A stretch of DNA of 32,000 nucleotides from Planctomycetales bacterium (GTDB lineage Bacteria; 4484-113; JAFGCY01): positions 1,500,001 to 1,532,000 of the forward strand of contig CP060262.1 of NCBI GenBank assembly GCA_022646745.1, read 5' to 3'. Shown piece by piece: positions 20,984-21,158 of the stretch; within the stretch, counting starts at the first letter, position 1, and the number at the start of each line of letters is the position of its first letter. Below the pieces are notes generated by a model, which saw nothing but the letters and a program-made list of their open reading frames with translations, did not search any database and was not told the DNA's origin. A program made the translations under genes and the position numbers.

Positions 20984-21008
20984 CTTGAGTCAGTCAGACG
21001 GACTCAAG
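20984..21008 (-). promoter_or_regulatory. hairpin spanning the stop codon of the 24-aa ORF (possible attenuator, processing or stabiliser element)
   Basis: CTTGAGTC (20984-20991) / GACTCAAG (21001-21008) form a perfect 8-bp stem with a 9-nt loop. The sORF TGA (21004-21006) lies in the 5' arm of the RNA. The hairpin is followed on the mRNA by C-rich CGGCCCCCCCTTCCCC, not by a U-tract. Confidence 0.55.
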
Positions 21009-21078
21009 AGCAGAAGCAGAACCCAGTGTGGCCGGTACGGATGCGCTTGCCGTCGAGCGGCTTCCTGATCATGTTCAT
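21004..21078 (-). CDS. unannotated 24-aa ORF MNMIRKPLDGKRIRTGHTGFCFCS (candidate precursor or leader micropeptide)
   Basis: Found by manual reverse translation; it is below the ORF-track length cutoff. The upstream context is AAGGAGG-tacgcag-ATG, a perfect SD with a 7-nt spacer. It has its own TTGCCA-N16-TATAAT promoter and is co-directional with the operon, 131 nt upstream of it. The N-terminal half is basic and the C-terminus is GFCFCS. Confidence 0.6.
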   Translation of the reverse strand: MNMIRKPLDGKRIRTGHTGFCFCS

Positions 21079-21130
21079 CTGCGTACCTCCTTTACTGGGA
21101 TAGGTGCCGCCATTTGGCGGCCAGTGCCGT

Positions 21131-21158
21131 ATTATACCCGGATTGAATGAAATGGCAA
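21131..21158 (-). promoter_or_regulatory. sigma70-type promoter for the sORF/operon
   Basis: The minus strand reads TTGCCA (21158-21153), a 16-nt spacer, then TATAAT (21136-21131). The predicted transcript starts just before a 6-bp GC hairpin, GCCGCC-attt-GGCGGC (21106-21121), and then reaches the SD. Confidence 0.55.

Follow-up and report, generated by a model that had tools for sequence, protein, structure and literature searches.

Organization of the leader

The window analyzed here, a 32,000-nucleotide stretch of contig CP060262.1 (assembly GCA_022646745.1, Planctomycetales bacterium, positions 1,500,001 to 1,532,000), carries on its minus strand an operon encoding a methyltransferase, an ABC exporter, and an array of GNAT acetyltransferases. 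A segment of about 260 nucleotides (nt) in front of the operon, counted from a predicted transcription start site (TSS), is probably its 5' leader. This leader contains a short upstream open reading frame (uORF) with its own Shine–Dalgarno sequence (SD), followed by a long untranslated spacer and accompanied by several predicted helices. In the direction of transcription, the features are as follows.

21131..21158, minus strand: sigma-70-like promoter with a conserved extended context, GGGTATAATAC
21106..21121, minus strand: H1, 5'-terminal GC hairpin of the predicted transcript, GCCGCC AAAU GGCGGC
21082..21099, minus strand: 5' arm of helix H2, CCCAGU-AAAGGAGGUACG, containing the SD AAGGAGG and pairing with 21039..21022
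21092..21086, minus strand: leader SD AAGGAGG, followed by 7 nt to the ATG at 21078
21004..21078, minus strand: uORF of 24 codons plus TGA (21006..21004), encoding MNMIRKPLDGKRIRTGHTGFCFCS
21049..21061, minus strand: apical hairpin of H2 within the uORF, GCCG CUCGA CGGC, codons 6–10
21022..21039, minus strand: 3' arm of H2, CGUACC-GGCCAC-ACUGGG, codons 14–19, complementary to the SD flanks (RNAalifold)
20984..21008, minus strand: H4, hairpin at or after the stop codon, CUUGAGUC ... GACUCAAG, with compensatory changes in three pairs
20873..21003, minus strand: untranslated spacer, C-rich and G-poor (C/G 1.66), with a C-run at 20980..20968
20898..20952, minus strand: H5, spacer helix of GACCGGCC (20952..20945) with GGCCGGUC (20905..20898)
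20878..20898, minus strand: H6, anti-SD CCCUCCC (20898..20892) facing the methyltransferase SD CAGGAGU (20884..20878)

The promoter consists of the −35 hexamer TTGCCA (21158..21153, minus strand), a 16-nt spacer, and the −10 hexamer TATAAT (21136..21131), matching at 11 of 12 positions, and it is the top sigma-70-like match of the entire 32 kb; it is of a strong, constitutive type. The initial annotation had read here a near-consensus promoter, a hairpin, AAGGAGG, 7 nt, an ATG, and a 24-codon frame, and all of these are present on the minus strand at the coordinates listed above. A promoter of the extracytoplasmic function (ECF) type was ruled out for the leader, the hexamers being sigma-70-like and not AAC/CGT. 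Meanwhile, AAGGAGG followed after 5–9 nt by ATG occurs three times in the window against 0.2 expected occurrences, and the other two precede real genes. The open frame alone is not significant at 63% GC, where the chance of meeting no stop over this length is estimated at about 50%. The uORF and the methyltransferase gene are presumably co-transcribed, because no terminator or promoter was found between them.

Conservation of the leader in related loci

Related loci were traced from methyltransferase homologues to their contigs, and the comparison set comprises eight distinct loci, five of clade A (the window, L001, L002/L003, L004, and L089) and three of clade B (L007, L091–93, and L094–96); L090 also belongs to clade A, with too little upstream DNA. 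The clade A methyltransferases are 57–82% identical to each other, and those of clade B are approximately 40–47% identical to that of the window. Between the window and the other clade A loci, the sigma factor, the ABC ATPase, and a 193-aa ORF are 83–93% identical, but the methyltransferase only about 62%.

In all eight loci, the promoter, the 5' hairpin, AAGGAGG, a spacer of 7–8 nt, the ATG, and an ORF of 23–27 codons are found in the same place, with the ORF situated 128–153 nt upstream of the methyltransferase gene; homologous ORFs of this size thus accompany that of the window in L001, L002, L004, L089, L007, L091, and L094. TTGCCA and GGGTATAATA are invariant in the five clade A loci, and GGTATAATA in all eight. 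H1 is present in the minimum free energy fold of every locus, with differing sequences, and 77% of its pairs are kept in the clade A alignment, the shortfall being partly a matter of alignment register. Furthermore, AAGGAGG, the 7–8 nt spacing, and the AUG are invariant in eight of eight loci even at positions predicted to be unpaired, namely the AAG of the SD and, in clade B, the AUG.

The small ORFs of the other clade A loci encode MLMNRTPLDGKRIRTGHTGSRFS, MFMIRKPLDGKRIRTGHTGFFSI, MFMIRKPLDGKRIRTGHTGFLSI, and MFINRKPQDGKRIRTGHTGFYFS. Clade B keeps GGTATAATA, the 5' hairpin, AAGGAGG, the 7–8 nt spacer, the ATG, and an ORF of 23–27 codons, and its peptides (MTRVMIGSATAVTTAAGLPRFRY, MRSMISGPVMTSTTAAGLPRFRN, and MKRIMIGFELVETMTRPDSAGHKKLPN) are unrelated to those of clade A. 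The ORFs of L007 and L091 are equal in length despite their divergence, and the extra codon of the window is a 3-nt insertion in the clade A comparison. The peptide had been described as Cys-rich; two Cys are indeed encoded in the window, but they are unique to this genome, and the corresponding tails in the relatives are SRFS, FFSI, FLSI, and FYFS.

No such ORF was found upstream of about 80 distant methyltransferase homologues in other gene contexts, and it is likewise missing from L005 and L097. The negative-control loci were the distant homologues from a scan of genome contigs with the methyltransferase alignment, in which, among the matches listed, only homologues of at most 41% identity in other contexts appeared; the methyltransferase homologues P0016 and P0017 also sit in unrelated contexts. 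Its presence in eight of eight related loci and its absence from the roughly 80 controls indicate that the leader ORF is a conserved, operon-specific feature. In L097, tandem 6/12-nt repeats of the GACACGGACGCG type lie upstream of the unrelated methyltransferase homologue (2010..2160, plus strand), with a tRNA-like sequence farther upstream of the array.

Wider searches returned no further copies of the leader. A degenerate DNA pattern for DGKRIRTGHTG gave 0 matches in metagenome contigs, and a metagenome scan with the 193-aa operon protein yielded a single contig, 1.6 kb long and lacking the leader. When the window and about 90 loci were screened with a covariance model built on the clade A leader, no additional copy emerged, and clade B lay beyond the reach of the model; Rfam gave no relevant family match in 20000..22000, even at E ≤ 10. 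When the concatenated peptide variants were compared with 5.8 billion protein clusters, the sole match was an over-extended gene call of L004. This call, the 58-aa 'hypothetical protein' P0121 annotated by JGI (L004 5689..5865, plus strand), is the uORF frame over-extended N-terminally through the promoter.

In addition, an AT-rich element, ACTWATAATGT (21199..21209, minus strand), lies approximately 45 nt upstream of the −35 hexamer and is conserved in four clade A loci, with a related ACATATAAAGT as its counterpart in L089. This element could be the −10 of a second promoter or a regulator binding site.

Predicted pairing of the uORF with its own ribosome-binding site

The central feature of the leader is H2, in which the 3' half of the uORF is predicted to fold back onto the ribosome-binding site (RBS) of the same uORF. 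In clade A, RNAalifold pairs the SD-flanking segments CCAGU(G) and GGUACG with CGUACC and (C)ACUGG of codons 14–19, and the predicted fold also pairs the AUG with GCAU in codons 12–13. An analogous helix of wholly different sequence is predicted in clade B, formed by GCG..GGAG..CGGUCG with CGGCCG..CUCC..CGC, where the AUG is predicted to be unpaired. The RBS-to-ORF duplex reaches −21 to −26 kcal/mol in eight of eight loci and is stronger in each of them than the duplex with a dinucleotide-shuffled ORF segment (p 0.002–0.045); in the window, it amounts to −22.9 kcal/mol against a shuffled mean of −16.9. The apical stem is invariant in clade A, with changes confined to the loop, and an apparently synonymous switch between GGG and GGA at Gly19 is matched by C or U in the arm of the 5' untranslated region, providing one compensatory pair of H2. 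According to these folds, most of the leader SD would be base-paired with the 3' half of the uORF. The earlier description of a perfect RBS thus holds for AAGGAGG, the spacing, and the ATG, but not for the accessibility of the site.

RNA-level and coding constraint on the uORF

The conservation of codons ~12–20 appears to be mainly RNA-level, mainly because these codons pair with the SD flanks and the AUG of the uORF itself. In the uORF, 9 of 13 codons have an invariant third position, compared with 27–31% (five genomes) and 44% (four genomes) in neighboring genes, and L094 carries the CGGCCGGACUCC motif in a reading frame other than that of L007 and L091. Together with the covariation at Gly19, the third-position conservation and the frame change of L094 point to selection on the RNA. 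In a tiny ORF, an RNA helix can mimic amino-acid conservation with 'synonymous' changes, and caution is warranted when such patterns are read as evidence for a peptide.

These observations are the strength of one alternative, in which the leader is an untranslated, structured cis-regulatory RNA (riboswitch-like, protein-binding, or an element of mRNA stability or processing), and in which GGAGG, the AUG, and the open frame arise incidentally from H2 and GGAGG/CCUCC pairing. H2 would account for most of the ORF conservation, the synonymous sites are more conserved than those of the neighboring genes, the same motif is read in different frames in L094 and in L007 and L091, codons 2–7 lack codon periodicity, and 24 codons without a stop are nothing unusual at such a GC content. 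Other observations fit an RNA without translation poorly. At unpaired sites of the clade A core, three of three third positions vary, compared with one of ten first and second positions (Fisher p = 0.014), a bias that indicates that some coding constraint is probably present too. Simultaneously, none of the eight loci deviates in AAGGAGG, the 7–8 nt spacer, or the AUG, unpaired positions included, the ORF length is held at 23–27 codons, and the indel of the window is 3 nt. The invariant initiation signals, the kept length, the 3-nt insertion, and the third-position bias argue for translation of the uORF. No Rfam family matched the leader either, and a purely structural RNA is considered unlikely here, although it is far from negligible.

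A reading frame that is not kept in related loci had been named in the initial annotation as evidence against a peptide function, and at least in clade B a frame change is tolerated (L094). It is mainly the helix that is conserved, alongside a third-position bias at the unpaired core sites; the ORF length is kept, and the window differs by a whole codon. At the peptide level, the clade A sequences have a conserved front and a variable tail, and those of L007 and L091 have a conserved C-terminus and a variable N-terminus.

The spacer and the methyltransferase Shine–Dalgarno sequence

Downstream of the uORF, the leader is predicted to fold into a second set of helices that ends at the methyltransferase SD. 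At the first of these, H4, UGAGUCCG in the stop-codon context is invariant in clade A. H5 shows two compensatory pair changes relative to GAUCGACC/GGUUGAUU of the other clade A loci. In H6, the CUCC/GGAG pairs are invariant in the five clade A loci and L090, an invariance that provides no covariation. The predicted unpaired probability of the methyltransferase SD is 0.02–0.19 in clade A and 0.15–0.55 in clade B. Over the whole clade A leader alignment, 91% of the cells are paired, and the six double-change pairs were matched by 1 of 500 shuffles.

The spacer (128–153 nt) has a C/G ratio of 1.3–1.9 in eight of eight loci, pooled 1.58. For comparison, the ratio is 0.99 from the TSS to the stop codon and 1.13 in the upstream intergenic DNA, and G exceeds C in the methyltransferase gene. 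Such a composition makes the spacer a candidate Rho-loading (rut-like) region, which also holds the conserved helices described above.

A probable regulatory leader with a translated uORF

The preferred reading, to which a probability of about 0.55 is assigned, is that the leader holds a short translated uORF that senses translation in cis and is not the gene for a peptide product. A ribosome would gain access to the uORF only during transcription, as long as H2 has yet to form, or when H2 is being held open by another ribosome. After normal elongation and termination, H2 would re-form, and the CUCC element would keep the methyltransferase SD masked; the naked C-rich spacer would then let Rho terminate transcription, leaving the expression of the operon low. 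If a ribosome were slowed or stalled on the uORF, by a ribosome-targeting drug or by a ligand sensed via the nascent chain, H2 would stay open. The freed GGAGG arm could then compete for CCUCC, and/or the ribosome could shield the start of the spacer, so that the methyltransferase would be translated and the operon read through. Resistance- and efflux-like genes are often under the control of a leader ORF, and the genes downstream are of this kind: a DrrAB-type ABC exporter, GNATs, and an amine methyltransferase.

Several points weigh against this mechanism. In a crude thermodynamic simulation with a masking ribosome, the accessibility of the methyltransferase SD rose in L001, L002, and L089 but in neither the window itself nor L004, an inconsistency that leaves the ribosome-driven switch hypothetical. 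The whole leader of the window folds no better than its shuffles (z = −0.71). Predicted pairing covers most of the SD of the uORF, unlike in typical erm- and tnaC-type leaders, and hence the SD and AUG could be structural. No canonical intrinsic terminator was found in the spacer. The comparison comprises only eight sequences (five and three), so that covariation statistics are weak, and the TSS, the translation of the uORF, and the involvement of Rho are all inferred from sequence. Classical amino-acid attenuation was ruled out separately, the uORF having no runs of a regulatory codon.

The initial annotation had offered a regulatory leader peptide as one of two readings. What stands of it is the regulatory arrangement: two clades share the ORF, its SD, and its position, the methyltransferase SD is predicted to pair with CUCC, and the spacer is rut-like. 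The peptide as the determinant fares less well, since most of its conservation is that of an RNA helix, its sequence differs between the clades, and one locus tolerates a change of frame.

The operon and its neighborhood

The genes that the leader would control, together with the genes upstream of it, are arranged as follows.

20051..20872, minus strand: class I S-adenosylmethionine (SAM)-dependent amine N-methyltransferase, 273 aa, first regulated gene (Pfam Methyltransf_25)
19085..20032, minus strand: DrrA-like ABC ATPase
18437..19018, minus strand: 193-aa ORF without a Pfam match, weakly GNAT-like (hhalign against the GNAT paralogs, E 0.0018, only suggestive)
12074..18352, minus strand: eleven tandem Acetyltransf_3 (RimJ/RimL-type) GNAT paralogs, 30–35% identical to each other
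11089..12036, minus strand: DrrB-like ABC-2 permease
21333..22322, minus strand: ECF sigma factor and 82-aa soluble zf-HC2 anti-sigma factor with an HxxxCxxC (ZAS, RsrA-like) motif
L007 3642..3917, L091 1763..2038, and L094 2401..2673, plus strand: ORF of 90–91 aa in clade B

The GNAT array and the 193-aa ORF are thus flanked by the two genes of a DrrAB-like ABC exporter, that of the ATPase and that of the permease. A single-sequence AlphaFold model of the 193-aa ORF was unusable (mean predicted local distance difference test 39.8). L002 and L004 contain five GNAT copies, L001 at least eight, and the P0013 locus three to four, a variation among close relatives that points to rapid tandem amplification and diversification. 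The ECF/anti-sigma pair is syntenic with the leader and the methyltransferase in both clades, and a glyoxalase-fold gene also lies upstream of the leader. In clade B, the extra ORF of 90–91 aa, without a Pfam match, is inserted between the methyltransferase and the ABC ATPase, with an 83-aa equivalent in the P0013 locus, and L007 has a second methyltransferase paralog downstream. The operon may serve detoxification, as an inducible battery acting on multiple substrates, or the tailoring of a small molecule, and the GNAT array with its CorZ-like methyltransferase may be the more unusual biology of the locus.

The methyltransferase is also the origin of a second alternative, in which the uORF encodes the precursor of a minimal RiPP (ribosomally made, post-translationally modified peptide), whose variable C-terminal tail (FCFCS, FFSI, FYFS, ...) would be cleaved off, N-methylated by the CorZ/BytZ-like methyltransferase and/or N-acylated by one of the GNATs, and exported by the ABC-2 pump. 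This account is entertained because the methyltransferase resembles the myxarylin N-methyltransferase CorZ: the closest solved homologue is CorZ itself (PDB 9sot, E 1.3e-37, full length), and the PFR motif, which contacts the substrate N-terminus, is kept. In the biarylitide/myxarylin clusters, a pentapeptide gene, bytA, is accompanied by the P450 BytO and the N-methyltransferase BytZ/CorZ, and in myxarylin, a tripeptide RiPP with a 5-aa precursor, the free N-terminal amine is methylated by CorZ (PMC12951456). As in these clusters and in mccA of microcin C, a tiny ORF missed by gene callers heads the operon of the window and is followed by a hairpin, a trait of many precursor genes.

Beyond CorZ, the methyltransferase matches cypemycin CypM and MtfA-type N-methyltransferases, and its best NCBIfam match is the methyltransferase of daptides, another RiPP class (daptide_MTase, NF041820), but at 110.9 bits against a cut-off of 175; a match to RrnaAD is likewise below the cut-off, at only E 7.5e-4. 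The genes for the daptide decarboxylase and aminotransferase are absent from the window. Methyltransferases of this family are, moreover, widespread in unrelated contexts. The GNATs are of the RimJ/RimL type (Acetyltransf_3), that of N-alpha-acetyltransferases, but the number of their copies (5 to 11) varies independently of the peptide. The methyltransferase evolves faster than any other gene of the operon (46% invariant residues compared with 78–84% in its neighbors), and the conserved front and variable tail of the clade A peptides would suit a leader and a core; the conserved 'leader' codons are, however, explained by pairing in H2, L007 and L091 show the opposite pattern, the clade B peptide is unrelated, and its frame is shifted in L094. 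A masked RBS also fits bulk production of a precursor poorly.

The form of this account in the initial annotation, a precursor with a short Cys core, is not upheld: the Cys residues occur in the window genome alone, the clade B peptide is unrelated, and no maturation enzyme, protease, or RiPP recognition element (RRE) was found in the window. The initial annotation had already reported no cyclase, protease, radical-SAM, or YcaO gene, and the search for a P450, radical-SAM, YcaO, or lanthipeptide enzyme, an RRE, or an operon-linked protease found none in the window, whose genes other than the operon and the sigma/anti-sigma pair are unrelated. In contrast to the known minimal RiPPs, the locus lacks a P450 or MccB-type enzyme, and its ORFs have 23–27 codons without a conserved Tyr/His or terminal Asn core; the pentapeptide motif of biarylitides (M-x-Y-x-H type) is not found in the 24-codon ORF. 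Precursor function is accordingly regarded as improbable. An S15 X-Pro dipeptidyl peptidase that looks secreted and carries PKD domains (4332..7031, plus strand) lies about 4 kb beyond the permease, and an MBOAT acyltransferase (30051..31463, plus strand) lies near the end of the window; both are outside the operon and would become relevant if a peptide product were ever found.

A peptide that acts on its own, for example as a small regulator or accessory subunit of the ABC transporter or as a type I toxin-like product with an RBS-masking mRNA, is the least plausible explanation and very improbable. The coding constraint in the core of the clade A ORF would be in its favor, and type I toxin mRNAs typically sequester their RBS by an internal sequence. 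On the other hand, the encoded peptide MNMIRKPLDGKRIRTGHTGFCFCS is basic and hydrophilic, without a transmembrane segment, its sequence is not conserved between the clades, and among the 5.8 billion protein clusters only the over-extended call of the same type of locus was recovered. A type I toxin–antitoxin system would call for a small, hydrophobic, membrane-active peptide and an antisense RNA, and no convincing antisense promoter was found.

It is also conceivable, though doubtful, that the same nucleotides serve both purposes, forming the RBS-masking helix and encoding a minimal precursor or sensor peptide whose variable aromatic C-terminal tail would, once cleaved, be N-methylated by the CorZ/BytZ-like methyltransferase, N-acylated by members of the expanded GNAT array, and exported by the DrrAB-like pump. 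If true, such dual coding would define a new class of minimal RiPP, without a P450, in uncultured Planctomycetota, and the tailoring operon would be gated by the translation of its own precursor.

Comparison with known leader systems

The regulatory reading of the leader, with its translated uORF, can be compared with three known arrangements. In the ermC, ermB, cat, and cmlA systems, as in the window, a leader ORF with its own SD is located upstream of a resistance-type gene, and stalling is expected to induce expression; the SD of that gene is sequestered in these systems and predicted to be so in clade A. The pairing partners differ: in erm and cat, the leader ORF pairs with segments farther downstream, through which the SD of the resistance gene is controlled, whereas the ORF of the window is predicted to pair upstream, with its own RBS. 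Furthermore, the methyltransferase of the window is not an Erm-type rRNA methylase, and the spacer of the window type is longer (130–150 nt) and C-rich. An R-x-R motif is present as RIR in clade A and as RFR in L007 and L091, is absent in L094, and is not statistically significant; it recalls the '+x+' arrest sites of macrolides and serves as a lead only.

With tnaC, the leader shares a length of 24 codons, a C-rich untranslated spacer that begins at the stop codon, the lack of an intrinsic terminator, and a conserved stop-codon context (UGAGUCCG in clade A). The arrest of TnaC on its ligand needs Trp12, Asp16, and Pro24. Neither a Trp nor a terminal Pro occurs in MNMIRKPLDGKRIRTGHTGFCFCS, and the TnaC-defining Trp, Asp, and Pro residues are missing. 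The two peptides are dissimilar, tnaC has no RBS-masking helix, and Rho dependence in the window is predicted.

The closest documented analogue appears to be the toiL uORF of the E. coli topAI-yjhQ transcript, in which a uORF, occlusion of the downstream RBS, Rho, and the sensing of multiple antibiotics are combined (Baniulyte & Wade 2025, PMC12121999). Stalling on toiL is proposed to remodel the RNA, and the peptide sequence is not the main determinant (PMC12121999). Both place a short uORF within a long 5' leader, and in the window, too, occlusion of the downstream RBS and an untranslated stretch open to Rho are predicted. Unlike toiL, the uORF of the window is predicted to pair through its 3' half with its own SD and AUG, and the two share no sequence similarity; the operon of the window encodes a methyltransferase, an ABC exporter, and a GNAT array, whereas topAI belongs to a toxin–antitoxin pair, and the window is known from sequence alone.

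To our knowledge, attenuation by leader ORFs has been documented well for Firmicutes and Proteobacteria but hardly at all for Planctomycetota. As far as comparative analysis can tell, the leader described here would add a new and so far unannotated form of such attenuation from uncultured Planctomycetota. What sets it apart is the predicted masking of the RBS of the uORF by the uORF itself, and such self-masking suggests a single-round, co-transcriptional sensor of translation.

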